From positions 1,503 to 65,502 of the IMG/VR virus record IMGVR_UViG_3300038461_000042: 64,000 bases of DNA. One strand, 5' to 3'. The stretch's first letter is position 1. Each line of letters starts with the position of its first letter. Below, piece by piece: positions 33,124 to 64,000 of the stretch. The notes below the pieces were generated by a model. That model had not been told where the DNA came from, did not search any database, and saw only the letters and a list, made by a program, of their open reading frames with translations. The stretch comes from a virus (Duplodnaviria > Caudoviricetes). The translations under genes were made by a program, and so were the position numbers.

Positions 33124-34305
33124 ATGCCTGAAATTGGCTTAGATGTAGCCACCGGACAACCGACCCCGGTGTCCGATGCAGTTGTACAGCGCGCTACCGA
33201 CCCAATCTGGGGTACCGTTGCTACCCCAGGTGATTTCGCCGCGCAGTTCCCTACCCCCCTCGATCATACCGAAATTCTCGATATGTGCGAGGATATTTCC
33301 CTTTTCCAGAACATTCCCGAAATCCGCACCTCTCTGAAACAAGAGAACTGGCGTGAAATGACCACCCTGGCATTCGTGTCCGGGTCGAACTATATCGCCT
33401 TTGCTGATGGAGGTTGCCCGGAAGAGTATTCTCACGATGGTTCAAACCGCACCGTTGACCTCAAGAACATCGGCGCGAAGAAAAGCCTAACCATCTCGGA
33501 CATCCTGCACTCTCTGGCTTCACAAGCGGCTGGATGGGGTATCACCGCTCTGATGGGCGGATATGCGGCTGGCGAAGGACTTCCTGGTGCCTCTGACGCA
33601 ACAACCTTCACCCGCGCCGAAATCGCCGGATTGAAGGTCAAGGAAATCCGCCTGAGCATGGTGCTCGTGATGAACGCCTATGATAGGCTTTTAGCCGAAG
33701 GTAACGCCACCTCACGTCCGTTGGAGTTCGATGGTATCGAAGCCCTGGTAGTTCCCGCCAATGGCGCGCATACCAACACCGGTTCAAGTGTTTCCGGCAT
33801 GACGGTATCCGGTTCCTTCTCTGCCATCGGCTTCGACCGCTTCTGCTCCGAGACTTGCGCGAAGCCTACCCACGTTTTCGGTCATCCTCAAGCTATTCAA
33901 GAGATGCTGGCCGCTTACTTCCAGTTGGGCTTCCAAGGTTCACAGGTCATCTTTCAGAACGATGGGAATCGTCTCATCCCTGGCTTCAACTTCGCCGGGT
34001 TCGTGAATACCTCCATCGGTCGCCTGACCGTGGTTTCTGATGTGAACTTCGCTCGTACCGATATGGGCAACGGGGCTTTCGCCTCTACGCTGTACGCTCT
34101 CCGTATGCAGCATAACGGCCTACCGTTGGTATACCGGGCGACACAGATACCTCTCAGTCTCGTTGACCTGGTTCCGGGTTGCAGCTCGATTTCCTTCGAG
34201 GTATGGGAAAAGACCGCTTTGGTTGTAAAGCAGTATTGTGCCCAAAGTGCATACCGCTCTGTATTCGCGGGTCGCCAATTTAATGGTTGTACCCAGTTGG
34301 GCTAG
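33124..34305 (+). CDS. Major capsid protein
   Basis: 393 aa after the protease; TAAGGAG RBS; strong C-ending codon bias; EFDGI motif. Confidence 0.8.
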   Translation: MPEIGLDVATGQPTPVSDAVVQRATDPIWGTVATPGDFAAQFPTPLDHTEILDMCEDISLFQNIPEIRTSLKQENWREMTTLAFVSGSNYIAFADGGCPEEYSHDGSNRTVDLKNIGAKKSLTISDILHSLASQAAGWGITALMGGYAAGEGLPGASDATTFTRAEIAGLKVKEIRLSMVLVMNAYDRLLAEGNATSRPLEFDGIEALVVPANGAHTNTGSSVSGMTVSGSFSAIGFDRFCSETCAKPTHVFGHPQAIQEMLAAYFQLGFQGSQVIFQNDGNRLIPGFNFAGFVNTSIGRLTVVSDVNFARTDMGNGAFASTLYALRMQHNGLPLVYRATQIPLSLVDLVPGCSSISFEVWEKTALVVKQYCAQSAYRSVFAGRQFNGCTQLG

Positions 34306-34308
34306 ACC

Positions 34309-34361
34309 TTGACGCCCAGTAAAAACCGATATATACTAGCCTCTGTCACAGGAGGCTAGTA
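34309..34361 (+). promoter_or_regulatory. Sigma70 promoter overlapped by an RBS-sequestering hairpin
   Basis: TTGACG-17-TATACT; TACTAGCCTCT-gtcacag-GAGGCTAGTA hairpin covering AGGAGG. Confidence 0.65.
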
Positions 34362-34366
34362 TTATT

Positions 34367-35347: not shown

Positions 35348-35406
35348 CTTCCCCCTTCCAATTATGTTCTCCTATCTTGTACAATTATGTACAGGAGAAC
35401 ATAAAT

Positions 35407-35649: not shown

Positions 35650-35661
35650 AAGGAAAATATA

Positions 35662-36331: not shown

Positions 36332-36364
36332 TTTTTGTGATAAAATAGAGGGGAAAGGATAAAA

Positions 36365-39087: not shown

Positions 39088-39089
39088 AT

Positions 39090-41496: not shown

Positions 41497-41498
41497 CA

Positions 41499-44402: not shown

Positions 44403-45233
44403 TTACCAGTAAAATCCCTCGGCATGAGGCGGTTCTTTGGGAGCCGCTTTTTGTTTTGTCTTTTTTGTTTCCCATTCTTGGGGAAGATATTCTGGGTGTA
44501 CCTTCGTGGATAATGGCAACCATGGCGGAAGTCCTTCCAACGGATTCTCGCTCGACCCACGAATAAGCATAAATTTAACATCCGTGTATTCCACATTGAT
44601 TTTCATCTTGTCACAGATATGTTTTGTCATAGCCTCCCCGCACCAATTGCCGGTCTCTTTATAGTAATCATCCGACCAGTTATAAGAGTTAAGCATGAAA
44701 CAGGCCGTAATAGAGTCTGCCCACCAGATATGAGTACATAGTCCCATGCCCCAATGAATTCCATGTCTATCGGCCTTTTTTCCAAACGCATCTATTCGAG
44801 GAATATAGAATGTGTTTTTCTTTGGTTTCTTGATTGGTTGTATGTTTAAGAACTTTGCGTCTGGGCGCGTGGAAACCACAATGTCATAATTGCCATGTTT
44901 CGCTTCATGGTCTCTTAACATTTCCCGACACCGCCATGATTTATACAAGAACGACAAGTCCCTGAATGGAATAATGGGGTAATCTTTATAGGGTCCTGGG
45001 TTGGGAACAGATTCGCCGTATCTGTACCATCTCTGTCCAATAATCTTCTTTTCCTCTTCCCATGATGTTATTTCTATAGCCAAAGGATGGTACGTTTCAC
45101 GTACCAAATCCCCTTGAGTATCAGTTGCAATAAAAATATCGGGGTGATACTTTTCGATTAAATGTTTGCGAAGAGAGGGGGCGCAGAACAAAAATGTTCT
45201 TGGCTGACCATAAATGCACAATGCCATTTTCAT
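44403..45233 (-). CDS. Putative glycosyltransferase (ALCIYGQPR…YDIVVSTRPD family)
   Basis: MKMALCIYGQPRT and YDIVVSTRPD motifs; abuts the convergent gene with no gap. Confidence 0.65.
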   Translation of the reverse strand: MKMALCIYGQPRTFLFCAPSLRKHLIEKYHPDIFIATDTQGDLVRETYHPLAIEITSWEEEKKIIGQRWYRYGESVPNPGPYKDYPIIPFRDLSFLYKSWRCREMLRDHEAKHGNYDIVVSTRPDAKFLNIQPIKKPKKNTFYIPRIDAFGKKADRHGIHWGMGLCTHIWWADSITACFMLNSYNWSDDYYKETGNWCGEAMTKHICDKMKINVEYTDVKFMLIRGSSENPLEGLPPWLPLSTKVHPEYLPQEWETKKTKQKAAPKEPPHAEGFYW

Positions 45234-46240
45234 ATAGTGATTACTCGGTTCTTGAGACCTTCTTTCCCGATTCTCTCAATAACCTGTTCCCGTTGCATCT
45301 GAGCGATAACAACGATTGGAAAATCGCCTTCAACATGATTTAAGACTGGAATTCCACCAATGGTCTGACCCTCGAATGCAGTGTCATTATCAACATAATG
45401 AATCACGTTCAGGGGAACTTGCTTGAGAAGTAAAAGACAAATATCCCCAATTCCCCATACAATAACGGGGCCGGAAATTTTCTTCATCTTTTCTATTTTT
45501 GCCTCAATATTTCCCTCGCACCATTCTTTGGCTTGGTAATACACTTCTTTCTCGTTTGGTTTTTCGTATAGAACGCGGAAGGCAGGATAATGATGACTTT
45601 CTACGATATAGTTATGAATAGCAACCGGATAATAACCATATCTTTCCAATAGTGCATTGAGGGTACGCGTAGTAAAGTGATTGATATGTTTCTGGCTGTA
45701 ATCCATAATTGGTAAAATGTTGATCCTGACCATTTTGGTTGCATCGGGAACATCCACAATGATTTTCCCGGTAGTATGAGAGGTCAATCTATCCATAACG
45801 GACTTCATATCATAAACATGCTCTAGGACATGAGAGGCGATTAGCAAATCTATACTTTGCGGCAATTCATCCCCAACATTCACAGTGGTTACATCGAGAT
45901 AGCCAAATTTTCTAAGTCGCATTTCTACATATCCCTCAGTTCCGCCAAAATCAACAATACGCGCATCCTTATGCGGTTCGGTGTCCATAACAAAATCAAT
46001 CAATCCATCAAGCCTGTCATGACTTTCCTTGCCCAAAAGAGCAGGTTCCGAGTCGTATCGGACTTTGTAATAGGCATCATAATCTTCTTGTGTTTTGTCG
46101 TTGGAATAAAATATCATTCCGCATTCACACAGGCAGATGTCATTGTGGTTCGGAAGTTCCCATCCATCCGGTACGACGAAATCCATTCCCCACGCAACGG
46201 TTTTATTCTTGCTTCCACAGGCCGGGCAATTACGACTCAT
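45230..46240 (-). CDS. SAM-dependent sugar methyltransferase-like protein
   Basis: CPACG…CECG Zn site, VDFGG, SHVLEH, HINHF and C-terminal VWGIG domain. Confidence 0.8.
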   Translation of the reverse strand: MSRNCPACGSKNKTVAWGMDFVVPDGWELPNHNDICLCECGMIFYSNDKTQEDYDAYYKVRYDSEPALLGKESHDRLDGLIDFVMDTEPHKDARIVDFGGTEGYVEMRLRKFGYLDVTTVNVGDELPQSIDLLIASHVLEHVYDMKSVMDRLTSHTTGKIIVDVPDATKMVRINILPIMDYSQKHINHFTTRTLNALLERYGYYPVAIHNYIVESHHYPAFRVLYEKPNEKEVYYQAKEWCEGNIEAKIEKMKKISGPVIVWGIGDICLLLLKQVPLNVIHYVDNDTAFEGQTIGGIPVLNHVEGDFPIVVIAQMQREQVIERIGKEGLKNRVITI

Positions 46241-46955
46241 TATTGACCATCCTTTTTATGGCAGTTCGTAAATCAACGGTTTCTTTGCAAACCAATTGAT
46301 ACGCTCTGTCCAAATACTCCGAATCGGGCACGTAACGGGCGGGGGTTGGCATTTCTTCGTGTTCGATAAATTCTATTTTGGCGCTGGTAATGTTGGCAAC
46401 CATACACGCAACCTCGTACATGGTAATCGGATTTATCGCTCCAACATCATAAATCCCATCGCCATCTAATAAAATGCGCCAGAACCAGTCCCCCACATCT
46501 TTTCCATACAGGTAGGTTCTTACTGTACTTCCATCTCCCCACACTTCAATAGGCTTTCCAGCCAACGCGCTTTGAATGAATATCGAAAGAGCCTTGTTCT
46601 TTTGGAATGGTAATCCAGAGGTCGCGTAGAGTCGCGCAATAACCACGTCCACATTGCTGTGAATACACTCGGCCTCCCACAATCTCTTGTGATAGGCGTA
46701 TTCGCTTTTTCCTTCATAGACCGCCCCGGAAGAAGCAAAGAGGACTTTGGTTTTATGCTTTTGGGCATATTTCAGGACGCGCGAGGGGGAGATGGGGGCT
46801 AGGTGGACAATCATATCCCAATTTAAGTGTTCCCACGCCTCGTGATATGTTTCATGGTTGAGCATCGCCAGATTAACATTATCGGGTTTAGTTCTTGCCA
46901 TCCATGTCCCACAATATCCCGACGCTCCTGTACACAGTATGTTTAATGTACCCAT
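46230..46955 (-). CDS. NAD-dependent epimerase/dehydratase
   Basis: TGASGYCG, ASSGAVY, YxxxK and GDGSTVRTYLY. Confidence 0.9.
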   Translation of the reverse strand: MGTLNILCTGASGYCGTWMARTKPDNVNLAMLNHETYHEAWEHLNWDMIVHLAPISPSRVLKYAQKHKTKVLFASSGAVYEGKSEYAYHKRLWEAECIHSNVDVVIARLYATSGLPFQKNKALSIFIQSALAGKPIEVWGDGSTVRTYLYGKDVGDWFWRILLDGDGIYDVGAINPITMYEVACMVANITSAKIEFIEHEEMPTPARYVPDSEYLDRAYQLVCKETVDLRTAIKRMVNNES

Positions 46956-46964
46956 CGTAAATCC

Positions 46965-47153
46965 CTATCCAATCTTCTTTTTCCAAAATTGCCACCATGC
47001 TGGTTTCAAGATTTGTTGCTGATATTGTTGATTTTTTTCATATCTTTCTTTAATTTCCCGTTCTGTCTTTGGTATACATTCTTGTGCGGCGTTCTCTATA
47101 TATTCCGCACAACCATGGCAGAAACCCGTTTCGTCAAATTTGTGTTTTCTCAT
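46965..47153 (-). CDS. Small hypothetical protein
   Basis: GAAAGGA RBS; CHGC; KPAWWQFWK tail. Confidence 0.5.
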   Translation of the reverse strand: MRKHKFDETGFCHGCAEYIENAAQECIPKTEREIKERYEKNQQYQQQILKPAWWQFWKKKIG

Positions 47154-47157
47154 ATTA

Positions 47158-49819: not shown

Positions 49820-51091
49820 ATGCCAACACCTATAATCAAACCTGCCCCCATCGCCCCGACCCCAATTATTAAGCCCATCGTTCCGGGTGGCTGTGTAATC
49901 AACGCGGGCAAGATCGCGCCGATGATTGCTTCCAAGTATGAGTTGGATAACAATACGTTCATCCTAGCTGCCAACGACGACCCGGTGAACTTGATTTCGG
50001 CGGAAGTGGGCGACAGCAAGCAGGAATTATTTTTTCCGCAGATGAAATTTTGCCGGTGGGATAACGAGGTCAATTTCTCGGCGCGGCTGGTACATGATGA
50101 GGCGGCTCCGCAGGTCATCACGAAGGGCAATCAAATTCAATGGATAGGGGAGCGGGTATCGGCCAATTTCTACGACCTGGACATCACGGACGAGGACGAG
50201 GGCGGGTACGAGTTTGAGGTGGTGTTGAACGAGGAACCGGATAGCAATGTTATCCAGTTTACCATCCAGACGAAGGGGCTAGATTTCTTCTACCAACCCG
50301 AATTATCTCAGGAAGAAATTGACGAGGGCGCGAGCAGACCTGACAATGTAGTTGGCTCGTATGCGGTCTACTGCTCCGCGTTGAAAACAAACATCGAGGG
50401 CGGGAACCTATATAAGTGCGGCAAGGTCGGACATATTTACAGGCCGTGGGTGGTGGACGCGGAAGGCAACGGGGTGTGGGGCGAACTAAATATCGACGTG
50501 GAAGCGGGTATCCTGTCTGTGACGATTGACCAGGATTTTCTGGACAAGGCGGTATATCCGGTTAGGCACGCAGCCGGGTTGACGTTTGGATACACAACCG
50601 CTGGAGGCACAGTAGGGTCAAATCCGTATAACTCCGCAAACGTTTTTGATGTACATACCGCCGGAGTGGGCGAGACCATTACAAAATATAGCATGTATGG
50701 ATTCTTTAATCCATCAATAACCTGGCAATTCGATGCATATACTGTTGTCAGTGGAGGAGCCGTTAGCAGATTGGGAACCGCGACAACAATAACTATGACA
50801 ACTACTCCGGGGTGGTTTGATAGTGCCGCAGTATCTCAGGCACTCACGAATGGCGCTGTTTACTGTGTTGCGTTTGGTAATAATGTTAATTCCGGAAATA
50901 TTTATTATGATTCAGCTACCAATGCCAGAGACAGGGATATTACCAATACTACACTTCCAACTACTTGGGCACATAACAGCTATTCAACCCCTCGTTATTC
51001 CATTTATGCCACGTACACGGCGGAGGGCGGCGCGAGGTGGAGTCGTCTTTTGGCAAATGAAGTTAATCGACTTGTAGTAGGAGAGGCATAA
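49820..51091 (+). CDS. Putative virion/accessory structural protein
   Basis: Pro-rich N-terminus; WDNEVNFS…RPDNVVGSYAVY…GKVGHIYRP domain; beta-rich C-terminus ending YSIYATY. Confidence 0.55.
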   Translation: MPTPIIKPAPIAPTPIIKPIVPGGCVINAGKIAPMIASKYELDNNTFILAANDDPVNLISAEVGDSKQELFFPQMKFCRWDNEVNFSARLVHDEAAPQVITKGNQIQWIGERVSANFYDLDITDEDEGGYEFEVVLNEEPDSNVIQFTIQTKGLDFFYQPELSQEEIDEGASRPDNVVGSYAVYCSALKTNIEGGNLYKCGKVGHIYRPWVVDAEGNGVWGELNIDVEAGILSVTIDQDFLDKAVYPVRHAAGLTFGYTTAGGTVGSNPYNSANVFDVHTAGVGETITKYSMYGFFNPSITWQFDAYTVVSGGAVSRLGTATTITMTTTPGWFDSAAVSQALTNGAVYCVAFGNNVNSGNIYYDSATNARDRDITNTTLPTTWAHNSYSTPRYSIYATYTAEGGARWSRLLANEVNRLVVGEA

Positions 51092-51092
51092 A

Positions 51093-52625
51093 ATGCCCTA
51101 TTTTGGCGACTATAACGCTGGAATGGCCCTATATAAGACCTTCACAACAGTAGACAGTACCGGCGCGCCCGCTTCTTTGGCGTCGGGAACAATGTCGGTT
51201 TTCAAGAACAATACAACTACTCCATCTACCTCTGGAACGAGTCTGTCTGCTAACTTTGGAAGCCTGGTCGGACTAAATCTTGTTACGGTAGACCTTAGTA
51301 CCGACCCTACCTTTTATGCCAACGGAAATGATTATGCCATTGTCATAAAAGAGGGGTTTATTGGCTCTATTCATGTGTTGGGGTACGAAGTGGGGCACTT
51401 CTCCATTGGAAATAGAAGTCCATTGCGCCCAAACGTTGCCGGACGTACCGTTTCGGTGGAAAGCAACGGTTTGATAGATGCCAATATGGTGCAAAATGGC
51501 CCGTCGGGAACCGGAACCAACCAGACCGCCAGAGACTTGGGGGCCAATATTGATGTAGCCATATCCTCTCGTTCTACCCTAGGCGGCGTTGCACAAACTG
51601 GAGACGCCTTCGCAAGAATTGGTGCGCCCTCTGGTTCGTCCATATCCGCAGACCTTCAATCAAATAGAGTGGCGATTGGCAATATTCCAACCGCCCCATT
51701 GCTCTCCGCAGACGCAAGAATACCGGCAACCATATTGGCCTCTCAATCCGATATTCTGATTAATCGAAGTGGTACAAACCTGATTCCCACAAATCCATTA
51801 CTGACAAGCGACTCGCGCGTTCCGAGTACATTAATTGCCTCTCAATCCGATGTACTTATCAATCGGAGTGGAACAAATGCCATTCCAACCAACCCACTTT
51901 TGACCAATGATGGTCGGCTTCCATCCACAAAGATTGCTTCGCAGAATGATGTTTTGTCTAATATAAGCGGGACAAATGCCCTGCAAGCATCCGTGGCTTT
52001 AATTCCAATTACCACGTTCCTGACAGGTGATACCAGGCTTCCCACAACCAAGATAGCATCTCAAGCAGATGTTCTGATAGGGATAAGTGGAACCAATACA
52101 ATTCCTGTTTTGGTGGATACGTTGTTATCCGCCAACCATACCACAGGAACTTGGGCCGGAGCAACGTCTCAACAGATAGATTCACAACTATCATCTTCAC
52201 ACGGAACAGGAACGTGGGGAGGCGGTAATGCGCCAAGCGTTGCACAAATCGACGCACAATTGTCAACCTCGCACGGAACAGGAACTTGGGGTGGAGGAAA
52301 CGCACCCTCGGTTGGACAGATTGATACCCAACTTTCCAGCACACACGGGGGCGGAGCGTGGGGTGCTATAGGAACGGGTGGAACGCTTAGTATTGTCACC
52401 GCCTCGCTGGTAGACACAACAACCGGAAATCCCGTACCAAATGCCCCGGCAGATTTATATGCTACAACGGGAACGCCGCCCAATAAGTTTGGCCCATTAA
52501 TACAAACTGTATTGACGGACGTTTTTGGGGTGGCAACATTCTCCAATCTAACCGCCGGGACATACTGGATTACCTTTAGGCCGGATGGATATACCCCCGT
52601 TCATATCACACAGGCAGCAGCATGA
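51093..52625 (+). CDS. Ser/Thr/Gly-rich repeat virion protein with C-terminal Ig/prealbumin-like domain
   Basis: About four 32-aa repeats (IPTNPLL.SD.R.P.T.IASQSDVL.N.SGTN) and three to four QID.QLS.SHGTGTWGG repeats; TD.FG.ATFSNL.AGTY. Confidence 0.6.
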   Translation: MPYFGDYNAGMALYKTFTTVDSTGAPASLASGTMSVFKNNTTTPSTSGTSLSANFGSLVGLNLVTVDLSTDPTFYANGNDYAIVIKEGFIGSIHVLGYEVGHFSIGNRSPLRPNVAGRTVSVESNGLIDANMVQNGPSGTGTNQTARDLGANIDVAISSRSTLGGVAQTGDAFARIGAPSGSSISADLQSNRVAIGNIPTAPLLSADARIPATILASQSDILINRSGTNLIPTNPLLTSDSRVPSTLIASQSDVLINRSGTNAIPTNPLLTNDGRLPSTKIASQNDVLSNISGTNALQASVALIPITTFLTGDTRLPTTKIASQADVLIGISGTNTIPVLVDTLLSANHTTGTWAGATSQQIDSQLSSSHGTGTWGGGNAPSVAQIDAQLSTSHGTGTWGGGNAPSVGQIDTQLSSTHGGGAWGAIGTGGTLSIVTASLVDTTTGNPVPNAPADLYATTGTPPNKFGPLIQTVLTDVFGVATFSNLTAGTYWITFRPDGYTPVHITQAAA

Positions 52626-53341
52626 CCATACCAATTACTCCCATTGTCCAAGTTCAGGGAACTCCGATTGTTTTGAGCGATACCATCTTTATAAACTATG
52701 GCGGACAGACCGGAACCTCTACCGCCTTCGCTAGAAACGCGGCCTATTTGATTGCAGAGAGAGAAGTCTGCTCCCACCTGCATACCCCCCTCGTTCCAAC
52801 CAATATCAGCGGGTCTTACAACTGGAACGCTGGAAATCCCTTTGAGATGGATTGGGGAAACATCAATACCATTTATGGAGTGACGGTTCAATCCAATCTG
52901 AATACCCTTTATGTTTACAGCGCGAATGATATGTTGAGGGCTGTATTCATTCGCAACGCGAAGTACGGCATTGTGGATATTCAATCGTGGCCGATGATGT
53001 ACCAGATTACATCTACTGCCTATCCAGTCGCCTCTCTACAACCCTACAGCGTCTTAGTTACTTACAATGCTGGCATGGCGGTTGGGGTGGCGACACAACC
53101 AGATATTTTATGGTGCTTGACCATGGCGGCGCAACTGGTCATAAACGAGATGTCTGTGGATGGGTCAATGGCGAATGAAGCACCGGGAGGAATTGGGATA
53201 ACGCAGTTCTCGAATGAATTGTACTCGGAACACAGAACCGCCCTTGGAGCCTCGATTTTCGGGGCAAGCCCTGTGAGTCAACAGATTACAAGACTCTTAG
53301 CAAGTTACAGAACTCGCTCCATTGGAAGGATGAGGAGATAA
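52622..53341 (+). CDS. Head-tail adaptor
   Basis: AERE…L.TPL and VTYNAG motifs; position in the structural module. Confidence 0.6.
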   Translation: MTIPITPIVQVQGTPIVLSDTIFINYGGQTGTSTAFARNAAYLIAEREVCSHLHTPLVPTNISGSYNWNAGNPFEMDWGNINTIYGVTVQSNLNTLYVYSANDMLRAVFIRNAKYGIVDIQSWPMMYQITSTAYPVASLQPYSVLVTYNAGMAVGVATQPDILWCLTMAAQLVINEMSVDGSMANEAPGGIGITQFSNELYSEHRTALGASIFGASPVSQQITRLLASYRTRSIGRMRR

Positions 53342-53342: not shown

Positions 53343-53735
53343 GTGGTAGCCGGGCTAAACCTTTCGGTTTCGGTAACTAGATATTTTTACCAAGACGACG
53401 ATGTTGGGGGCAGCGTTCCGTCTGGTACTACAGTCTATCAGAACGTCCAAGGCCGTCGGATAGACCACATGATTCATATCCGCAGAATTCCAATCCTCGC
53501 CTCAGACCAACAAGGCTTAGAGTCTGACCGATACAACCTCTTTGAACTCTATCCCGCCACCATAGACGTGAAAGAAAATGACGAACTTCAAATCACCAAC
53601 CCTCCGAATAATTGGGATTATCACAAATACTTCCGTGTCATTTCTATCATGCGCGAAGGTTATCATCCCGCAGACAAGCGAGGCATTCTTTTAGTATCTT
53701 GCAGACGGAGTGTGATTGCCCATGGCATCCAGTGA
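53343..53735 (+). CDS. Head closure (stopper) protein
   Basis: DDVGG…DVKEND…FRVISI SPP1 gp16-like pattern. Confidence 0.6.
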   Translation: MVAGLNLSVSVTRYFYQDDDVGGSVPSGTTVYQNVQGRRIDHMIHIRRIPILASDQQGLESDRYNLFELYPATIDVKENDELQITNPPNNWDYHKYFRVISIMREGYHPADKRGILLVSCRRSVIAHGIQ

Positions 53736-54652: not shown

Positions 54653-54915
54653 AATCAATCTTGGAACCCGTTAAATCCGATATTGACCCCGAACCTCAAG
54701 TAACATACAATTATGTCACCAATCGTTTACCTTCTCGTGTGATTCGATACGGAGCGGTCACGGGAATAAGGTACGAGTGGAAACCGGGGGAATGTGTTGC
54801 AGTTCGATCCGAAGATGCAGATGCGTTACGAAACCTGAAATTAGGTGGTCGCCCCTGTGCTGGATGCTCAGGAGGTCCAACCGCCAATCTGATTTTTGAT
54901 GTATCGGAGGACTAA
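54610..54915 (+). CDS. Small Cys-tail protein (PCAGCSGG)
   Basis: G.VTG..YEW…V..ED..AL…C..C; resembles 36101-36331. Confidence 0.55.
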   Translation: MAKRSNRSLDNQYVESILEPVKSDIDPEPQVTYNYVTNRLPSRVIRYGAVTGIRYEWKPGECVAVRSEDADALRNLKLGGRPCAGCSGGPTANLIFDVSED

Positions 54916-55541
54916 TGACACTCACTACAGGAACGCCACTAGGAAATATCGTCACCCAGGAAGATCGTTTCCTGGAAGGGTCGCCCTATCTCTATATCCA
55001 GGACTACCGCGCCGGCTCATTGAATCATCCCGACGCGAACGGGTATTACTGGAACCTTTCAGGGACTTCGACCTATCCGGTCTACTCGCTTGGCTGTATC
55101 CAAGATGTCAAGATGACCGATAACGTCACCCTGAACATGATTCGTTGCGATACCGTCGGTAACAAGGCTGCCATCCAACGCCGTAACGAGGTTGATGTTG
55201 ATTTCCAACTGAACAGCCTCCTGCCCCTTGCCGTCACAAAAATCTTGATGAATATGTTCGACTCCCTTGAAGTCTCCGGGCGCGAGTATGTCGGTATCGG
55301 GAAGATCAACAACAACCAATACTGGCAGGTCTACGCCCCCAAGATTTATGACGACGTGGCCGGATACTGGATTATGGCGCACTTCGCCCGTTGCCAGGTG
55401 GTCGGAAACTTTGTCTGGGACATGAACATCAACGGGCACAAGCTGACCGGAATCAAGATCGCGGCTCTCGTGGATGAAACCAAGCCCGCGAATCAACTTT
55501 TCGGCTGCCTTGCGCGTTTCGACGCCAGCGCGTTGCCTTAG
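54915..55541 (+). CDS. Major tail tube protein
   Basis: GGAGG RBS; capsid-like codon bias; position before chaperones and tape measure. Confidence 0.7.
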   Translation: MTLTTGTPLGNIVTQEDRFLEGSPYLYIQDYRAGSLNHPDANGYYWNLSGTSTYPVYSLGCIQDVKMTDNVTLNMIRCDTVGNKAAIQRRNEVDVDFQLNSLLPLAVTKILMNMFDSLEVSGREYVGIGKINNNQYWQVYAPKIYDDVAGYWIMAHFARCQVVGNFVWDMNINGHKLTGIKIAALVDETKPANQLFGCLARFDASALP

Positions 55542-55547
55542 GGATAA

Positions 55548-56162: not shown

Positions 56163-56421
56163 AGAAGCCCTCCAAATGTACGAGTTGATTCGGAAATTCC
56201 TGCCGACCAAACCCGTTACACAGATAGAGGCAATTCATTCCATGGTGGTCAAAATGGGAGCGGAAATATATTTTGAGTGTCTAACCTTGTTAACTGGAGA
56301 GAATCGGGACGCCTTAATCAATGCCAATAAAAACGAAAGGCTTGCAACTTTTCTGAGCGGGTTTCAAGAAAACCATTTATTTGATCTCCCCCGCTTGAAA
56401 GTGGACGGATTGTATGGCTGA
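56137..56421 (+). CDS. Tail assembly chaperone-like protein
   Basis: Lies between the chaperone and tape measure genes. Confidence 0.45.
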   Translation: MKAKLLNLEEALQMYELIRKFLPTKPVTQIEAIHSMVVKMGAEIYFECLTLLTGENRDALINANKNERLATFLSGFQENHLFDLPRLKVDGLYG

Positions 56422-59308
56422 TGAAATTGATACCCTAACCACGCAAATACTTCTCAATGATAGCCAGGCTATAAAAAACTTGGCGGAATTCGCCACGTCT
56501 TTGACTACTGCCCAAGATAAAATTGCTGGATTACAGAAAGTAGTTGATGCTCTTGCCGAAAAAATGGGGGGTGATTTTGACGCGGCGAAACAAAAGGTAA
56601 AAGACTTTAATGATGTAATTGCCGCCATGCCGGGCATTTCTAGTGGATTAAAGGGATTTGATGCTTCTACATTTAATCAAATAACCGCCTCTGCACAAAA
56701 AATGGGGGAAGCGTTTCAACAAGACGCGGTTTCCATCGGGGCATTTACTACTGATATTGAAAAAACAAAGAGTTTTTTAGCAGACTTAGACCAATTTGAC
56801 AAAGACCTTGCTGCCGATAGTCCATATCAAAAAATGTCGGCGGACATAAAAGCGTGGTTGGGCACACTTGACGAAGCGGACTCAAAGGAAAAAGAGGTAA
56901 ATAATACTACCCAACAAGTTGTTCAGGCACAAAATAACGTTGGAAGTGTTGGGGTATCGGTTTGGCAAAGAATAAAAGATGCCATGTCGCAGTTGTCCGG
57001 CGAAGGAATAAATTTCACAAAAGTACTTGGGCAAATTTCTCAAGCATTTTCGGTCGCGTTCGGTATAGGAATTTACCAGCTTGTCAGCAATATTGTTAAT
57101 CAATTCAAGGAGGCTGTAAGTCTTGGATTTCAGTTGTCCCAATCTCTCTACCAGTTAAATGCTGGTATTAATATGATGAGGGAATCTGGAATAGATATAA
57201 CGATGAAAGACGTTCAGGCCTCCATTGCACAAATGGCAAAAGACATGCCATTCATTTCTGTTCCAGACTGGACAAAACTAGCTGCCCAAGTTACATATAT
57301 CGCCGGACAACTTGGATTAACCAAAGACCAAGTTGAGGGATTGATGCGGGCAACGGCTATAGTTGCACAAGATATGGGGACAGATACGCTCTCGGCGCTC
57401 CAGAAAATTATGGGTGCGTTGGACAGCGATACGGCGGCCTATCAAAGACAGTTATTACTCGGAACAAGTTATGCTATTTCCGCCCAACAGATTTATGCGG
57501 AGGCGGTAAAAGAGGGAACCGCTGGACTTGCTACATCTTATCAGCAACTTGACCAAAACGTCAAAACACAGGCGTTTATGGTTTTATTGCAGGATGAATA
57601 CAACAAACGGGTGCTGGCTGGTGGAGATTATACCAAAACACAGGCCGGACAAGTAAAAAACCTTGGGGCTGAATGGACAAACGTAAAAACCACTTTGGGA
57701 GAAGAAATAGACCCATATTTGGGAAAGATGGCGGATGAATTAAAAATAATCCTCCCGTTGGTAATAGATTTGGGGAAAGCATTTTTAGCGGTTTTTGAAC
57801 TAGCTCTTACTCCCGCCGCGGCATTATTTGGATATGTTGAAGCCAGCATCGCGTATATTATGAACGCGATAAAAAGCAAAGATTTCAATATTGGAGAGGG
57901 CATTAAGGCTGGATTGGCCGGCGCGCAAGAGGCTGTTCAGGAATTAATGAACACCATAAACCAAACTCTTGCCGGGCCTCAGACAAATACGGGAAATGAA
58001 CTTTCTCTTGGCACTCCCGCCTCCCCGAGCAAAGTTACCGACCTTACCGGAGTGGCTGGGGCGTCTGGTATGATTTCCACCCCTCAACAAGAATCTTCCG
58101 TTACCCTTGCAGAACAGGCCGAGAAAGAAATTGTCTCCATTCAGGATGAGGAGGCGGCAAAACTTGCCCAGATTCAAACCAATCTTTCCAATAAACTGAT
58201 AGACATTCAGACAAAATACAACGAAGCCTCGGAAGCATTGGCGTTAGATAAGGCTAATAAATTACAGGACATCGAAACCAAGTATGCCCGTGATTTAGCC
58301 GCGCTTTATGTGGATGAGGCGAATAAGGAACAATCAATTCAGGCGAATACTGCCGAAAGTATCGCAACCGCCAATTCAAAATATCAATTATCCAACCTGG
58401 AAGCGGAGCAGAAATATCAGGAAGATTTACAGAACCTACGCGACCAATTCAGCCTTAACTTGGAAGAGGCCCTACGCGAGCGCGATGCAAAAACCATTAT
58501 CCGCCTGATAGAACAGTACGACGAACAAAAGACCGAGAAAGCAAAACAGTACGCCGATGAGAGCATCACCAGACAGGAGAATTACCAACAAGAGATAGTT
58601 GACCTGAAAGCGCAAGAAGCCTATCAGCTACAAGAATTGCAGATAGAGACGCAACAACGCGCCCAAGCTCTCGCGGTTCAGCGCGACCAAGAAATTCAAG
58701 ACCTGAATACCGACATAGCCCGCAGACAACAGGCTCTTGCCGTTGAAAGAGACAATGAAATTGCCGCCGCCAACCAGCAAGCCCAGAGAGAAGCCGATGC
58801 CGAAAGAACCGACATAAACAATCGCTTGAAGGCATGGGCGGATGGATTAATGACCCAATACAACCTGACCAATGAACAGGTGCAGAATATCTACGCGTTA
58901 CTGAAAACCTACTTTGGCCCCAATGGATATGTAGACCAGATTTACGGTTATCTTATCGCAAGAATGGGACAGGTCGCGGCAGAAGCAATGGCAGTTGCAC
59001 AAGCCTATGGAAATATCGGATTTGGGGTTCCGGCAAACAATGTCGCTGTGACCGGAATGGCTTCTGGTGGCTCGCTCTTCGCCAACAAACCAACTTCGGT
59101 TACTTTCGGAGAAGCGGGGCCGGAATTGGCAATGTTCATTCCTTTGGGTTCTAGATTCGGGGGCGCGCCCTCCGTTGGGGCAGGAGGCATAAATGGTGGC
59201 TCAATCCAATTGCAAGTTACTTTAGACCAAAACCTTCAAGCCCAGATAGTGCAGACCTCCTTGGACAACGTGGCTCTTTCTATAGATAGAATTAACAGGC
59301 AGTCATAA
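56414..59308 (+). CDS. Tape measure protein
   Basis: 964 aa, Ala/Gln-rich helical and coiled-coil; C-terminal MASGG…FGEAGPE. Confidence 0.9.
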   Translation: MADEIDTLTTQILLNDSQAIKNLAEFATSLTTAQDKIAGLQKVVDALAEKMGGDFDAAKQKVKDFNDVIAAMPGISSGLKGFDASTFNQITASAQKMGEAFQQDAVSIGAFTTDIEKTKSFLADLDQFDKDLAADSPYQKMSADIKAWLGTLDEADSKEKEVNNTTQQVVQAQNNVGSVGVSVWQRIKDAMSQLSGEGINFTKVLGQISQAFSVAFGIGIYQLVSNIVNQFKEAVSLGFQLSQSLYQLNAGINMMRESGIDITMKDVQASIAQMAKDMPFISVPDWTKLAAQVTYIAGQLGLTKDQVEGLMRATAIVAQDMGTDTLSALQKIMGALDSDTAAYQRQLLLGTSYAISAQQIYAEAVKEGTAGLATSYQQLDQNVKTQAFMVLLQDEYNKRVLAGGDYTKTQAGQVKNLGAEWTNVKTTLGEEIDPYLGKMADELKIILPLVIDLGKAFLAVFELALTPAAALFGYVEASIAYIMNAIKSKDFNIGEGIKAGLAGAQEAVQELMNTINQTLAGPQTNTGNELSLGTPASPSKVTDLTGVAGASGMISTPQQESSVTLAEQAEKEIVSIQDEEAAKLAQIQTNLSNKLIDIQTKYNEASEALALDKANKLQDIETKYARDLAALYVDEANKEQSIQANTAESIATANSKYQLSNLEAEQKYQEDLQNLRDQFSLNLEEALRERDAKTIIRLIEQYDEQKTEKAKQYADESITRQENYQQEIVDLKAQEAYQLQELQIETQQRAQALAVQRDQEIQDLNTDIARRQQALAVERDNEIAAANQQAQREADAERTDINNRLKAWADGLMTQYNLTNEQVQNIYALLKTYFGPNGYVDQIYGYLIARMGQVAAEAMAVAQAYGNIGFGVPANNVAVTGMASGGSLFANKPTSVTFGEAGPELAMFIPLGSRFGGAPSVGAGGINGGSIQLQVTLDQNLQAQIVQTSLDNVALSIDRINRQS

Positions 59309-59646
59309 TGACATTCGCAATAAATAACACAAACTTGATTACCCAACCATCCGACCATTATTGGATGGAGCGCACCAATTTGGGCTATGATGGGAATGGA
59401 CATCCAATATACCCGACTCCAAGGCAGTACGAAATGGATTGGGATTGGCTTGAGGTAGATGCCTTTGCCCAACTCGAAGGATTTTATCTCTCGTGTACAG
59501 GGACGTGTCAAATCAGTTTACCTTGTTGGGGTAGTGCAACCGGAGGTTTTGCTACCTATTCGGCCACTTTGAGAGAGCCGACCTATTCTAAGTCCTTTGA
59601 GGGATTTTACGGGTCGGTTAAGTTCATCGCGCTAAACGTCAAATGA
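59308..59646 (+). CDS. Distal tail protein-like
   Basis: 112 aa directly after the tape measure. Confidence 0.55.
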   Translation: MTFAINNTNLITQPSDHYWMERTNLGYDGNGHPIYPTPRQYEMDWDWLEVDAFAQLEGFYLSCTGTCQISLPCWGSATGGFATYSATLREPTYSKSFEGFYGSVKFIALNVK

Positions 59647-61943
59647 CCAGTGATGCCAATATCCAACTCCTGAGAAGCCCCAACCATTACGAGGAGCTTT
59701 TTCTAAGCATTTACAACCCCACGACCATCTTCTCGGCGCAGGTGAGTGGGGCTGTTGTACAGGGCGCGCGAACAATTCCCTACAACAATTCGTCTGGTTC
59801 ATATTCAGACGTTTTCTATAATTCGGTTATGTTAGTTGGAACGGCTCCGGGATTAAGCGACCTCGGAAGAGTCAGGGTTCGCTCTGCCAATGGGTCAAGT
59901 TTTTTGGTGGCAGAGAATTGGGATATTCCATGGCAAAACGGACTATATCTAACAATCTTAAACTACATTGACCTCAACCCGATTTATCCTAGAATAATCT
60001 CGGGGACGAGTTCAAATGGCGATCCGGTCATTTTCTACAAAGATTATGACATTGCCTATACCAACCAAAACTCCATCATGGGCGCACTTCCATGTATGGG
60101 TTCTCATCAAGCAGTCTTTTTAACCAGCGGAACGGCGCAAGTCTACTGGTCTGCCACGGGGACAAATCATGTCGGCGGGGATTCAATGACCCACGCGTGG
60201 ACATTCGAGGGCGGAACACCGTCTACTTATTCAGGGATAACGCCGGGGAATGTGACCTATTCAACGCCCGGACACTATAAGACTAAATTAGTAATCACCG
60301 GAAGTAGTGGGTCAGTGGACACGAGTTTCCGATTCGTATCGGTATATCCACGCGCAAGCAATGGAGATGCCATTTCACCCATTCAAAGGTGGTCTACTGT
60401 ACAGATACAGGGAAGCAGGTCGGAGGCGGGTTACTCGGTTAACCTGAAAATCTATGACGCGATTAACATTTACGATGGCGCGCTGGTTATTATCTTTGCA
60501 GACAAAACGAGTTACGGCAATACTCAAACGACTATCGGCTCACCTATAAAATTCGTGGGATATATTCAAAAAGGAACCATCGTCTACGATTACCAGAGCA
60601 GTAACGTAGAATTTACCGCCGTCAGTGTAACGTCCATGATGAAAGACATCGAAGCGTTCTCCATTTCTTGTAACAGCGTCGCCTCTCCAACAACCTGGTA
60701 CGAGATCAAGAACATGAACGTTTCCAAGGTCTTATACCATTATCTGAAATGGCACACAACCATTCTGGATTGTACCGATGTTCAATATACCGGAGATGCA
60801 AGGATAGTCCAGTACTTCGACAGCAACAGGGAAAGCATCTATGATGCCGTTTACGATTTTATTTCCAAGGGAATACTTGGAGAGATGGTCGCAGACAGAC
60901 AGGGCAAGATATGGGTGGAAATCTCCGCTGGCGCGGTTCACAACGCGCCTTCGGTAATTCCAGTTAACATGCCTATCATAAAGAACGACTGGATGGGGGA
61001 ACCAAGCATTGAAGAAAATATCACCAAAAGGTACTCTGCCCTTGAATTGGGAGGAGTGGTGTTTAATGGAGTTGACTCAAGTATCGCAATTCTAGCCATT
61101 GCCCCCGGAATAGCCCCAGGAGTGAGAGGAAATATCAACCGGATAGAAGGCTTTATCGCCACCTCCCAAAGCCAGATGAATGATGTGGTCGGGGATTATT
61201 ACGCCTATCTGACCGCAAGATACGCAGTCTCTATGAAACTAGCGGGAAATTATAACAACATTGACATTGCCCCGATTCAACAATGCCCATTGAATATTTC
61301 CTCGTCAGATACGGTCAGAGGGATAACCTTTGCAAACAAGTCGTTCCATCCCATTCAAATGGATTGGGTATATGACGCACAAAATGGATCTATTTATCCA
61401 AGTGTAAAGTTTGCTTTAATTACAAATGGACTCGTCGGAGGAACAGAAGCGGTTGCCTCTACGCCCACCGGAACTTCTTATTCAGTTCCTACGGGGACAT
61501 CGGGGCAGTCCATTACCATTCCAGACATTCCACCGATTGACATACCGACCATTCCGCCAATGACAGTACCTCCGTTGGGGCTTCCATCCATGCCACCCAT
61601 ACCGTTACCAAGTCTTAACATGGGTACAATCCCTCCGACATGGGTGATTGCCAATCCAGTCGCAGGAACGGTTTTGGGGCCTTATATTCCATATACCAAG
61701 ACACTTGCATTAATAGTCGCCTCTACGGATACCGGGACGGTGACATTTGACCTGGAGGTCAGAGTTTTACCTAACGTAACCGGAGGGCGTGTGAACGAGC
61801 CGGATATTACCGCCACCAGTAGCGGAGTTAAGGTCGTTCCCGATACCAATACCATTGCTTTATCGGGAGAATGGTTGGTTTTGACCATTACAAGCACATC
61901 TGGAAGCCCGACAGAGTTCGCGGTTAGCGTGGTGACACAATGA
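59643..61943 (+). CDS. Baseplate hub/central tail protein with PKD domain
   Basis: WTFEGGTPST…VTYSTPGHY..KL PKD motif; ADRQG hub motif; Pro-rich linker. Confidence 0.7.
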   Translation: MTSDANIQLLRSPNHYEELFLSIYNPTTIFSAQVSGAVVQGARTIPYNNSSGSYSDVFYNSVMLVGTAPGLSDLGRVRVRSANGSSFLVAENWDIPWQNGLYLTILNYIDLNPIYPRIISGTSSNGDPVIFYKDYDIAYTNQNSIMGALPCMGSHQAVFLTSGTAQVYWSATGTNHVGGDSMTHAWTFEGGTPSTYSGITPGNVTYSTPGHYKTKLVITGSSGSVDTSFRFVSVYPRASNGDAISPIQRWSTVQIQGSRSEAGYSVNLKIYDAINIYDGALVIIFADKTSYGNTQTTIGSPIKFVGYIQKGTIVYDYQSSNVEFTAVSVTSMMKDIEAFSISCNSVASPTTWYEIKNMNVSKVLYHYLKWHTTILDCTDVQYTGDARIVQYFDSNRESIYDAVYDFISKGILGEMVADRQGKIWVEISAGAVHNAPSVIPVNMPIIKNDWMGEPSIEENITKRYSALELGGVVFNGVDSSIAILAIAPGIAPGVRGNINRIEGFIATSQSQMNDVVGDYYAYLTARYAVSMKLAGNYNNIDIAPIQQCPLNISSSDTVRGITFANKSFHPIQMDWVYDAQNGSIYPSVKFALITNGLVGGTEAVASTPTGTSYSVPTGTSGQSITIPDIPPIDIPTIPPMTVPPLGLPSMPPIPLPSLNMGTIPPTWVIANPVAGTVLGPYIPYTKTLALIVASTDTGTVTFDLEVRVLPNVTGGRVNEPDITATSSGVKVVPDTNTIALSGEWLVLTITSTSGSPTEFAVSVVTQ

Positions 61944-62479
61944 CGATAAACCAAGTTCCCGAAGATGGTCAGTTGGAAATAACCACTATTTATCATAATA
62001 CTCATTATGGATTTTTTCCCGCCACCAATTGGTCTTATACGATAACCCTAACGTCCTTGGGGGCGGCGGGGTTTTATAAAGATGTAGAGGCGCAGATACC
62101 GGCCAATTTAGTATATTCTTGGACGTGGACAGGTAGTGGCAACGCCCTTGTTTCCGGACCTGGTCCAAATGCTTGGTATTGGAACCGGGCAAAGTTTTGG
62201 ACACCAGAAAATTACAGCGAGATTGCTTACCAGTATTATAAAGTAGATTTTGTCATTCATTCTGACGATTTCATAGATATTGGTTATATTCCATTACACA
62301 TAAAACCCGATATTGAGATGACAGGCATTGGGCGCGTTACCGAAGATAACACATGGGAAACGGCCTATGATGTTACCCAAAGCGGACTCAATGATTTTTC
62401 CGGTTCCTTTACGGTAAGAACCCACCCATATGGAATGAATGCCGTCAATGTGGTTCAAATGCTGATAGGATTATCCTGA
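61940..62479 (+). CDS. Minor tail protein
   Basis: Aromatic, beta-rich; ATGA coupling. Confidence 0.5.
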   Translation: MTINQVPEDGQLEITTIYHNTHYGFFPATNWSYTITLTSLGAAGFYKDVEAQIPANLVYSWTWTGSGNALVSGPGPNAWYWNRAKFWTPENYSEIAYQYYKVDFVIHSDDFIDIGYIPLHIKPDIEMTGIGRVTEDNTWETAYDVTQSGLNDFSGSFTVRTHPYGMNAVNVVQMLIGLS

Positions 62480-62499
62480 AAGTCCGAATTGACTCGTAA

Positions 62500-64000
62500 A
62501 TGGCAAATCTAAGTAAATCTCTCGCCAACCTGAAAAGTACCATCGAGCCGAGAAAGCAGCAAATCTCCGGTTCTTTAGGTATTATCACAGGAGGGCAGTA
62601 TGTTGTGAACGTCCCCGGCAGACCGGGCTTCGTTTATGTGAGAATACTTGGAAACACCAGCGAATTAATTCAAGCCTACAACGACCAAGTTTCCAATGTT
62701 TACGACCTCCCGGTTACATTAATACGCGATGCCACAAAATACATTGTGGTTGGTAGGGATGTAGCCAGATACGCCTCATGGGGATATTCGTCTTACATTC
62801 CTGCCCATGGAGCCAACCATTCATTCGGAGGAACCGACCCGGTTTGGATATATTCAGAACAGTTCGTTCCGTTCAGTGTTTCACCGTCTGGAACGAGTCT
62901 GACTATCGCCCCGTATGTGTATAACTGGAATGGACAATGGAAACAAGGTGGGAATACGGGTACTTCAACAATCACTCTTCCGTCCGACCCAACCAAACAA
63001 AGTGTCATGCTTTTATACATTGACGGAGCGACAAGTAATCCAACCTGGCTTCCCGGAACAGAAGCGCCGATAGGATTAGCGACAAAACAACAACTCTATC
63101 CCTATTTACCAGACTTCTCATCTTCTCTTGGTATTCCCATAGCGATGTACGCCGTTCCATCGGGAACGACTTCCTTCAATTGGAATTATCTATATGACAT
63201 AAGACAATATTTTATGGGTTCTATGTCGGGTTCATCGGGAGGAGGAATATCAGAAGCCCCGGTGGATGGAAATATTTACGGACGAAAGAACGCGGGGTGG
63301 GCTATTGTTTCTGGTTCATCCACTACTGGTTCTAGTTACTCTTTACCAACGGGTTCATCGAGCATTCTTGGGGGATATAGAGTTGGTTTGGGATTGGGGG
63401 TTTATCCAGATGGAACATTGAACGTCACCGGAAGTAACGGAAATATTCAATCCATTGCTAACGTTTCTAATCCTCCCACTTCCGCCGAATTAATCGCAGT
63501 TCTTGGCACTCCCGACGAAAATTCCCAAAATTCTTATATATTGAATGACAATGGGGCGGGAAATAATACCTATTTGATAGTTTCTGATGGAGGACATTAT
63601 CTTGTTCTTCCACTGGCGCGTACACAAGAAGTCCTTCCCGTTCTTGGAAGCATCACAACAGCGACCATTTGTACCGGCGGAACGAACTCATGGTATGGCA
63701 GGGCTTCCATAAAAGAGTTATCAAACCATACCCTCGTTCTTGTTTATTATCATTCTTCGGGGCATTCAACCAATGATGGTGCGCTCCATATTCGTTTTTC
63801 AACGGATTACGGAGCAACTTGGACAGCAGAGGATAAATATACGGATGGTTCAAGTGTAAGCGGTTTCCCAATGAATCCAACTGAGGCGAGTGCGGGCGAG
63901 GATGCTGGTGAACCTTGGTTAATGATTGCTCCTAATGGGGACTTATTATTACATATGTGGAGAGTACATTATGCCGTAACCGCCAACGGAACTTATCAAA
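62500..64000 (+). CDS. Tail fibre/spike with foldon-like motif and BNR/Asp-box domain (truncated by the window edge)
   Basis: ATG at 62500 open to the end (my translation; missing from the track); EAPVDGNIYGRKNAGW at 63253-63300; Asp-box STDYGATW near 63800. Confidence 0.75.
   Translation, partial: MANLSKSLANLKSTIEPRKQQISGSLGIITGGQYVVNVPGRPGFVYVRILGNTSELIQAYNDQVSNVYDLPVTLIRDATKYIVVGRDVARYASWGYSSYIPAHGANHSFGGTDPVWIYSEQFVPFSVSPSGTSLTIAPYVYNWNGQWKQGGNTGTSTITLPSDPTKQSVMLLYIDGATSNPTWLPGTEAPIGLATKQQLYPYLPDFSSSLGIPIAMYAVPSGTTSFNWNYLYDIRQYFMGSMSGSSGGGISEAPVDGNIYGRKNAGWAIVSGSSTTGSSYSLPTGSSSILGGYRVGLGLGVYPDGTLNVTGSNGNIQSIANVSNPPTSAELIAVLGTPDENSQNSYILNDNGAGNNTYLIVSDGGHYLVLPLARTQEVLPVLGSITTATICTGGTNSWYGRASIKELSNHTLVLVYYHSSGHSTNDGALHIRFSTDYGATWTAEDKYTDGSSVSGFPMNPTEASAGEDAGEPWLMIAPNGDLLLHMWRVHYAVTANGTYQ

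Follow-up and report, generated by a model that had tools for sequence, protein, structure and literature searches.

The virion proteins of a tailed phage known only from metagenomic sequence (IMG/VR virus record IMGVR_UViG_3300038461_000042) contain a short ordered tripeptide, Ser or Thr followed by Gly and again by Ser or Thr ([ST]G[ST]), much more often than expected. The window (the whole stretch of 64,000 nucleotides that was analyzed, bases 1503-65502 of the 65,502-base record, which is rated 94% complete) also carries a block of glycosyltransferase (GT) and sugar-precursor genes of ~13 kb (36365-49762), and the original prediction was that the tripeptide is the acceptor onto which these enzymes build a glycan coat. 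The excess itself is confirmed: it is ordered, present throughout the lineage, conserved at individual sites in unrelated proteins and found in exposed proteins only. Both the structural role of the tripeptide and the target of the GT enzymes are what we infer from these patterns. The reading that we favor, with a probability of about 45%, is that the tripeptide is a structural loop or turn signature and that the GT cluster, though probably directed at the virion, is unrelated to it; we consider this slightly more likely than glycosylation directed by the motif.

Excess of the tripeptide in exposed virion proteins

Recounting [ST]G[ST] in the window gave exactly the numbers of the original prediction for every protein that it had listed (Table 1). 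The exposed class (n=15) comprises the capsid, the proteins encoded from 49820 through the fibers minus the chaperones and the tape measure, and those of the two genes after the fiber, with 49820, 51093, a 288-aa (amino acid) protein and 216-1175 assigned to it by gene position alone. Pooled, these 15 proteins contain 50 copies versus 15.5 expected by composition, and the remaining 64 proteins of the window 10 versus 11.2 (3 versus 2.7 in six inner or assembly proteins, 7 versus 8.5 in the 58 others). The enrichment beyond composition that had been proposed is therefore present, and it survives controls for composition, local composition and dipeptide usage. Whole-protein shuffles (3000 per protein) yielded 3.3 copies for the 13 observed in 51093, a number reached in none of the 3000, 2.4 for the 10 of 59643 (p=3e-4) and 3.6 for the 10 of the full-length fiber (p=0.003), with p=0.013 for the tube and p=0.053 for the capsid. 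Shuffling the exposed proteins within blocks of 20, 30 or 50 residues still gave only 17-18 copies versus 50, so that local stretches rich in Ser, Thr and Gly fail to account for the excess.

It is the complete triplet that stands out. Taken one flank at a time, Ser/Thr is over-represented 1.22x before Gly and 1.32x after Gly in the exposed proteins of the window (1.18x and 1.12x in control phages), and the two flanks together occur 50 times versus 23.0 expected from the two dipeptide rates (odds ratio 5.7, p=7.5e-12). Leaving out 51093 lowers it to 4.8, and for the non-exposed proteins of the window it is 0.85. Among the residues that can occupy the center of [ST]x[ST] in exposed proteins, Gly is far ahead at 3.2x and Lys comes second at 1.7x; SGT, TGT and SGS are among their most over-represented tripeptides.

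For comparison, the virion proteins of nine control phages lacking a GT cluster (lambda, SPP1, HK97, T7, the long fibers of T4, T5, TP901-1, phi29 and the metagenomic phage Rctr41k) were sorted from their annotation into exposed and inner ones. The GT families PF00535 and PF00534 are absent from the entire records of Rctr41k, lambda, SPP1, T5 and TP901-1, and the remaining controls we take to be GT-less from annotation and recall. Bxb1, a tenth GT-less control added later, has an odds ratio of 1.19. The value of the window exceeds those of all ten, among which T7 reaches the highest noted, 2.34, and the probability of its 50 copies at the control rate is 3e-8 (Poisson tail, overdispersion and repeats ignored). 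The inner proteins of the nine phages contain 18 copies versus 22.4.

Two further statements of the original prediction concerned single proteins. The repeat units of 51093-52625, a product that we place in the virion from the position of its gene, do bear the motif, four of them as NRSGTN/ISGTN and three as HGTGTW, so that repeats account for 7 of its 13 copies. The tape measure is indeed devoid of [ST]G[ST], but the weight given to this absence does not hold: only 0.97 copies were expected there, and 0.74 in the equally motif-free 49820, making both zeros uninformative, and the tape measures of the relatives have about the expected number (Table 1).

Conservation across the lineage

The protein collection contained 1394 capsid homologues at E<=1e-5, one of them named 'Capsid protein' by UniRef, and scanning IMG/VR with the capsid alignment retrieved 55 loci at 50-89% identity. 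Eight relatives, seven of them rated complete and the eighth being G001, were rebuilt (capsid identity 56-88%) and their genes labelled by BLAST to the window. Their exposed proteins contain 225 copies versus 68.1 (3.3x; 1.7-4.1 per genome), their inner proteins 20 versus 20.7 and everything else 142 versus 103.2. Ten [ST]G[ST] sites are conserved, two in the capsid, three in the adaptor, one in the neck protein, two in the tube, one in the distal tail protein and one in the tail tip. At these sites Ser and Thr replace each other freely and the rare other substitute is Val; the surrounding sequence follows the pattern hydrophobic-x-hydrophobic-[ST]-G-[ST]-x-hydrophobic, as in TLAFVSGSNYIAF, YYWNLSGTSTYPVY or PTNISGSYNW. 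In the capsid, each of 120 homologues with an identity of 61% or more retains sites 86 and 229.

The larger proteins at the tail end behave similarly. In 150 representatives of the tail-tip family there are 975 copies versus 355.5, with 3.4x in the conserved N-terminal part (2.1x without three hot columns) and 1.7x in the variable C-terminal part; the fibers of the relatives show 5.8x in their N-terminal part and 2.9x in the variable rest. The fiber of the window also holds SGSSGGG-type linkers, and its C-terminal part has four SxDxGxTW-like repeats resembling a sialidase-type propeller. The family of 51093 (18 matching proteins including the query) is heterogeneous: a close homologue that is richer in repeats has 16 copies versus 3.9, and the other 16, distant ones have 38 versus 38.5. 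One relative (G008, loci L102-L105) has, between the portal and the homologue of the 655-aa head protein, a 494-aa open reading frame that matches no protein of the window, is made of ~100-aa repeats (..GNISGTL.., ..GNVTGSV.., ..PTGTV..) and holds 15 motifs versus 2.4.

The capsid protein gave no sequence-level match in PDB and no Pfam or PHROG hit. Its AlphaFold model, built from 38 sequences, matched the capsid proteins of HK97, SPO1, SU10 and T5 and encapsulins in Foldseek (probability 1.0, E 1e-10 to 1e-8). In this model, site 86 would lie in a tip of low confidence flanked by strands 73-82 and 104-122. Burial of the motifs, named at the outset as a result that would speak against an acceptor role, is not indicated by the two poor models available, those of the capsid and the tube (mean predicted local distance difference test, pLDDT, 65 and 59): four of the five sites fall in low-pLDDT loops or arms, with capsid 229 as a borderline fifth. 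The capsid has in addition six cysteines (55, 98, 245, 353, 372 and 389) and a C-P-E-E motif that are invariant in the 38 sequences, down to 51% identity; the latter is found in the low-confidence tip, beside the SGS site.

The glycosyltransferase block

The block takes up a fifth of the genome, and no annotation library accounts for it or for the conserved tripeptide. Six GT-family proteins are followed by genes for sugar precursors, and the combination of a pyridoxal-phosphate (PLP) enzyme, a split thiamine-diphosphate enzyme, epimerase/reductase genes and a methyltransferase suggests that a dideoxy sugar with a branch or a methyl group is made, perhaps by a route akin to the yersiniose/YerE pathway. 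The relatives retain a core of GTs (GT2a, GT1-like, GT4a, GT4b and GT2c) and vary in the accessory genes, in the manner of surface-glycan loci. By tblastn, 33 of the 39 capsid loci with at least 5 kb downstream show this core before the adaptor (GT2a and GT1-like, mostly with the 132-aa protein, GT4a, GT4b and GT2c). The remaining six comprise one that is too short and five whose PF00535 genes are located further downstream. The GT1-like enzyme was located at 33 loci, all on contigs of the lineage, with no independent lineage found and no tblastn match in 50,697 GenBank phage records; GT4b matches six other GenBank phages, none of them mycobacterial. Since the cluster is lineage-wide, there is no GT-less relative inside the lineage for comparison: none was found, and among the contigs related by their tail tip those that do not carry the GT1-like gene are 21-46% fragments. 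Cluster and capsid lineage travel together, and the link between cluster and motif is therefore a single evolutionary co-occurrence.

No membrane-like segment was found in the proteins of the cluster, and the Pfam families detected in the window include none for lipid carriers, flippases, polymerases or a hydroxymethyl-base pathway. Integrase and base-hydroxymethylation genes were likewise not found in the window. Taken together, these results make a cytoplasmic protein target the simplest reading. The lineage gives no sign of lysogeny. Glycosylation of DNA was considered and is unlikely, the window having no hydroxymethylase or TET/JBP-type family and the cluster no DNA enzyme other than a methylase that is missing from G001.

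Among the relatives, the region downstream of the capsid gene has some further contents. At one (L047), an ADP-ribosyltransferase-family gene (12524-13354; PF03496, E 8e-32) and a gene for a ParB-like 1022-aa protein are located directly after the capsid gene and before a GT gene. At another (L061:18074-21129), a solute-binding protein and two ABC-transporter permease components follow the capsid-side GT and cytidylyltransferase genes. A third (L065:14286-21154) has a second set of terminase, SPP1-type portal, MuF-like and capsid genes 3-10 kb past the capsid gene of the lineage, which may be a chimeric assembly or represent two head modules.

What the tripeptide may stand for

The structural reading would have a strand ending in Ser or Thr (sometimes Val), Gly as the turn and then Ser or Thr, together forming a building block of beta-rich virion proteins that would be passed down with each protein family and, in the fiber-like ones, increase in number through internal repeats. 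The soluble GT and sugar-precursor cluster would be a separate lineage-defining trait that most probably puts a glycan on the particle, no bond to the tripeptide being implied. Two-residue beta-hairpin turns with Gly followed by Ser, Thr or Asn are type II' turns, and the sites of this lineage share with them the strand-end residue, the Gly, the small polar residue and the hydrophobic alternation around conserved sites. Flanks that change become Val, which fits strand ends, and the contexts resemble strand-turn-strand. The excess is heavier in the conserved than in the variable parts of both tail tip and fiber, the fiber-like repeat proteins have one motif per repeat, and neither the inner proteins nor the enzymes are depleted of it in the window, nor are the inner proteins of the lineage. 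The distant Rctr41k, which comes from an enrichment culture and has only homologues of the tail tip and of the fiber N terminus in common with the window (25-33% identity), points in the same direction and carries the most weight. No PF00535 or PF00534 gene (GT2 or GT1-family) was found in its record, and its homologous tail proteins have 6 copies versus 2.5 and 7 versus 2.7 (odds ratio 2.0), about two thirds of the effect; in a 10-kb sister contig the figures are 7 versus 2.6 and 6 versus 2.8 (odds ratio 2.9). The positions themselves are mostly different, as only one of the eight N-terminal sites of the tail tip of the window aligns with a motif of Rctr41k and the most conserved site of the family (column 172, 128 of 150) has no aligned motif there.

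A number of results weigh against a structural explanation. A generic turn preference should appear in any phage and type II' turns are expected to be universal, yet the exposed proteins of the nine controls have only 87 copies versus 65.4 by composition (1.33x; 0.65-2.17 per phage), their triplet matches the dipeptide rates (87 versus 83.7, odds ratio 1.06; 0.57-2.34 per phage), and none of the ten GT-less phages shows a cooperative excess. In the eight relatives, by comparison, the labelled exposed proteins have an odds ratio of 3.6 (p=2e-30; 2.0-5.6 per genome) and the rest 1.11. The models of capsid and tube do not put the sites in hairpins: four of the five (capsid 86 and 219, tube 5 and 49) have pLDDT <50 instead of forming tight hairpins, in models that are poor. 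The variable ends of the fibers are still enriched in the relatives, at the 2.9x given above. Finally, when each aligned site is counted once, both flanks are Ser/Thr at 10 of 90 conserved-Gly columns in six unrelated exposed families and at none of 56 such columns in inner proteins or 62 in GT proteins (0/118; Fisher p=1.7e-4), and when conserved class-triplets are tallied without bias, [ST]G[ST] comes out on top in exposed proteins (10, the runner-up having 5) and is absent elsewhere.

The same single-count figures bear on the idea that the excess is an artefact of repeats, low complexity and homologous sites counted repeatedly. The repeat copies in 51093 and the linkers of the fiber are of this kind, and the totals for the lineage count homologous sites up to nine times, but with 10/90 versus 0/118 after single counting, an odds ratio that stays high when 51093 is left out, an excess that persists in block shuffles and values of 2.0-5.6 in each of the eight relatives, we regard an artefact as very improbable; explanations by composition alone, local composition or repeats were rejected on the strength of the block shuffles, the single-count sites and the odds ratios. 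A more substantial competitor, which we hold to be possible though less likely than not, is the one originally proposed: [ST]G[ST] in flexible exposed loops would be the acceptor signal of a soluble GT of the lineage and capsid, neck, tube, tail tip and fibers would be sugar-coated, with the universally kept GT2a and GT1-like enzymes as candidate readers and the other transferases extending the glycan in the cytoplasm. It would agree with the fixed position of the cluster between capsid and adaptor in 33 of 39 loci and the restriction of the GT1-like enzyme to contigs of the lineage, with cluster proteins devoid of membrane-like segments beside no named family for lipid carriers, flippases, polymerases or hydroxymethyl bases, with a cooperative excess limited to exposed proteins, conserved in six unrelated families and above that of all ten GT-less phages, and with the low pLDDT of four of the five modelled sites. 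Other phages with GTs in the virion module also have raised odds ratios (Che8 2.09, p=0.007; phiPsal1 2.68, not significant; Mae-JY09 2.00, p=0.04), and an exploratory one-sided Mann-Whitney comparison of GT-bearing with the ten GT-less phages, small (5 versus 10), ad hoc and not chosen blind, gives p=0.014, or 0.038 without the lineage. Against this, the cluster and the motif co-occur in one lineage only, phages of the Rctr41k type keep part of the effect and have no detectable GT genes, and the tripeptide occurs 10 times in non-exposed proteins with no sign of avoidance. Corndog, glycosylated according to citing papers, has an odds ratio of 1.24, below that of the GT-less T7, and the acceptors known so far are C-terminal tails, which are absent here. 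We found no paper on an [ST]G[ST] acceptor in searches that were not aimed at that string.

It is also conceivable, though unlikely, that something else reads the tripeptide (another modification, a chaperone, a host surface or enzyme), or that it reflects a habit of beta-proteins in the host taxon, while the GTs act on host envelope precursors or DNA. In genome bins, capsid relatives occur only on short contigs that are binned inconsistently and point to no particular host, the partial effect in the enrichment-culture phage Rctr41k could mean a shared host or habitat, and phage GTs also modify DNA and host serotype, as stated in a passage of PMC12619734. This has to be set against the lack of integrase and base-hydroxymethylation genes in the window, the fixation of the cluster among the structural genes of a lineage that shows no hint of lysogeny, and the fact that the GTs are the only candidate reader encoded beside the structural genes.

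If the acceptor explanation held, an uncultured siphophage lineage of ~55-110 kb would coat its whole particle with a self-made variable oligosaccharide, added by its soluble transferases in the cytoplasm at an O-glycosylation signal of three residues (Ser/Thr-Gly-Ser/Thr) located in exposed loops, a proposal that we put forward as tentative. Phage glycan coats would thereby gain their first sequon-like acceptor rule, and other, unrelated phage groups might likewise have Gly-centered Ser/Thr signals that mark glycosylated virions. Such a rule would make glycosylated particles predictable from sequence across metagenomes; it would also open the sites to mutation or transplantation and allow tests of what the glycan coat does for host adhesion, protection or immune evasion. 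Even with no link to sugar, two facts stand: six unrelated virion proteins conserve an ordered tripeptide, and a ~13 kb cluster is fixed between capsid and neck genes across the lineage.

Genome organization and other genes

The ends of the record share an overlap of 133 bases (7 mismatches), which makes the genome circularly permuted or terminally redundant; for the same reason the fiber gene at 62500, cut by the end of the window, continues at the start of the record for another 843 bases. The structural genes begin with terminase, portal, a 655-aa head protein (31064) and the capsid, followed by an HNH endonuclease (34367-35347). Then come the GT and sugar-precursor block, the two variable genes 49820 and 51093, and the adaptor, neck, tube, chaperone, tape measure, distal tail, tail-tip and fiber genes (Table 1). 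The HNH endonuclease is missing from G001 and G002, relatives that are collinear in other respects, and is likely a mobile insertion. None of the GenBank phages has DNA-level similarity to the window and no cultured relative of the lineage was found. As to the host, capsid relatives in species genomes amounted to three short contigs of differently labelled bins and two weak partial hits.

Table 1. Features of the window, with the number of [ST]G[ST] motifs in the window and the number observed versus expected in the eight relatives (start positions alone where only these are listed).
Position	Strand	Feature	Motifs, window	Motifs, relatives	Remarks
216..1175	+	Ser/Thr-rich protein, 319 aa, after fiber genes	3		1.3 expected
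8541-9860		DnaB	1		
16819-17970		RtcB RNA ligase	1		
26840		Terminase		4 vs 3.5	
28569		Portal		5 vs 5.0	
33124..34305	+	Major capsid protein, 393 aa, HK97 fold	3	17 vs 6.3	Fold from Foldseek; motifs at residues 86, 219, 229
36365-36997	+	GT2 (GT2a)			Pfam, PHROGs, NCBIfam
36973-37881	+	GT1-like			Pfam, PHROGs, NCBIfam
37871-38692	+	GT2			Pfam, PHROGs, NCBIfam
38689-39087	+	Conserved 132-aa protein, Gly-rich, no known family			Kept by most relatives at 27-69% identity
39033-40001	+	RfbH/DegT-like PLP enzyme			RfbH in NCBIfam at E 5e-42, below cut-off
39998-40759	+	N6/N4 DNA methylase inside GT block			Missing from G001 and G002; likely mobile insertion
41499-42500	+	GT4 (GT4a)			Pfam, PHROGs, NCBIfam
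42473-43615	+	GT4 (GT4b)			Pfam, PHROGs, NCBIfam
43575-44402	+	GT2 (GT2c)			Pfam, PHROGs, NCBIfam
44403..49762	-	Sugar-precursor genes: DUF7796-like protein, methyltransferase, two epimerase/dehydratase-family proteins			Pfam, NCBIfam
48132-49226 + 49223-49762	-	Thiamine-diphosphate enzyme split in two genes			Split likewise in G001
49820..51091	+	423-aa protein, no known family, variable slot before adaptor	0		Missing from G001 and G002
51093..52625	+	510-aa repeat protein, C-terminal prealbumin-like domain	13		Two repeat families
52622..53341	+	Head-tail adaptor-position protein, 239 aa	2	22 vs 3.7	Three sites conserved in lineage
53343..53735	+	Neck protein (stopper), 130 aa	1	8 vs 1.0	Site in 9/9 genomes
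54212		Terminator	1		
54915..55541	+	Tail tube protein, 208 aa	2	16 vs 2.9	Motifs at 5 (8/9 genomes) and 49 (9/9); named by gene order, no family match
56414..59308	+	Tape measure protein, 964 aa	0	7 vs 6.8	
59308..59646	+	Distal-tail-position protein, 112 aa	1	12 vs 2.1	Site in 9/9 genomes
59643..61943	+	Tail-tip protein, 766 aa, PKD-like stretch	10	49 vs 18.1	
61940..62479	+	Tail protein, 179 aa	2		
62500..63999	+	Tail fiber, cut at window end	9	91 vs 24.1	737 aa in full, with 10 motifs, 9 of them in residues 1-312

Outside the structural region, 7446-7829 (minus strand) encodes a dATP/dGTP pyrophosphohydrolase family protein (PF04447, E 8e-22), with no PurZ-like partner seen in the window. 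The RtcB RNA ligase and a ferritin-like protein (25558-26025) are both encoded by the phage.

Comparison with known systems

Short signals for cytoplasmic glycosylation are known in bacteria, for example the N-X-S/T of HMW1C-type enzymes and the Thr of Gly-x-Thr in collagen-like exosporium proteins. These systems have in common with the one considered here a soluble enzyme, a very short signal and many sites, with a Gly near the acceptor in the case of Gly-x-Thr, and they differ in the residues involved and in the enzyme families. We know of no [ST]-G-[ST] sequon.

To our knowledge, glycosylation of phage virions has been established experimentally only for mycobacteriophages; Freeman and colleagues, in a 2023 article in Cell Host Microbe, reportedly described virion O-glycosylation in Che8, Corndog and Myrna. 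In Che8-type phages the glycans are on capsid proteins and form a shield that alters antibody binding, according to PMC11256854, and a passage of PMC12619734 places mycobacteriophage glycans at the C termini of capsid and tail tube subunits; virion glycosylation in these phages is also cited in PMC12582341. Che8 and Corndog resemble the present lineage in that soluble GTs are encoded by the phage in or near the structural genes, with the particle as the proposed target. In Corndog, a methyltransferase and three GTs are directly upstream of the capsid gene, and here six predicted GT-family proteins are conserved between capsid and adaptor. The cluster of the window differs in being much larger, with its six GTs and a sugar-precursor pathway, and in its location between those two genes. 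It differs also in the acceptor, as the capsid ends in ..GCTQLG (..C..IG in the lineage) and the tube in ..SALP, not in a C-terminal Ser/Thr of the kind described for mycobacteriophages, the proposed acceptor being an internal tripeptide. The capsids of Che8 and Corndog end in Gly-Ser (..KTGS and ..LVGS) and their tubes in ..DGS and ..GDS; those of Bxb1 do not. By analogy, a glycan on the particle would be like the mycobacteriophage system, and the single acceptor feature that could be tested is absent here.

Closer in gene order are two cultured phages, phiPsal1 of Pontimonas (MG835450) and Mae-JY09 of Microcystis (PP395641), in which the capsid gene is followed by a GT cassette (5764-9981 and 8408-13421, respectively) and then by the neck genes. 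Directly after the capsid and before the neck, both have a GT4-like enzyme with 24-27% identity to 42473-43615. Unlike the lineage studied here, they have one to three enzymes only and a modest excess of the tripeptide (5 versus 3.3 and 20 versus 9.7; odds ratios 2.7 and 2.0), and we met with no published glycosylation data for either. Being in culture, phiPsal1 and Mae-JY09 could be experimental models for capsid-linked GT cassettes.

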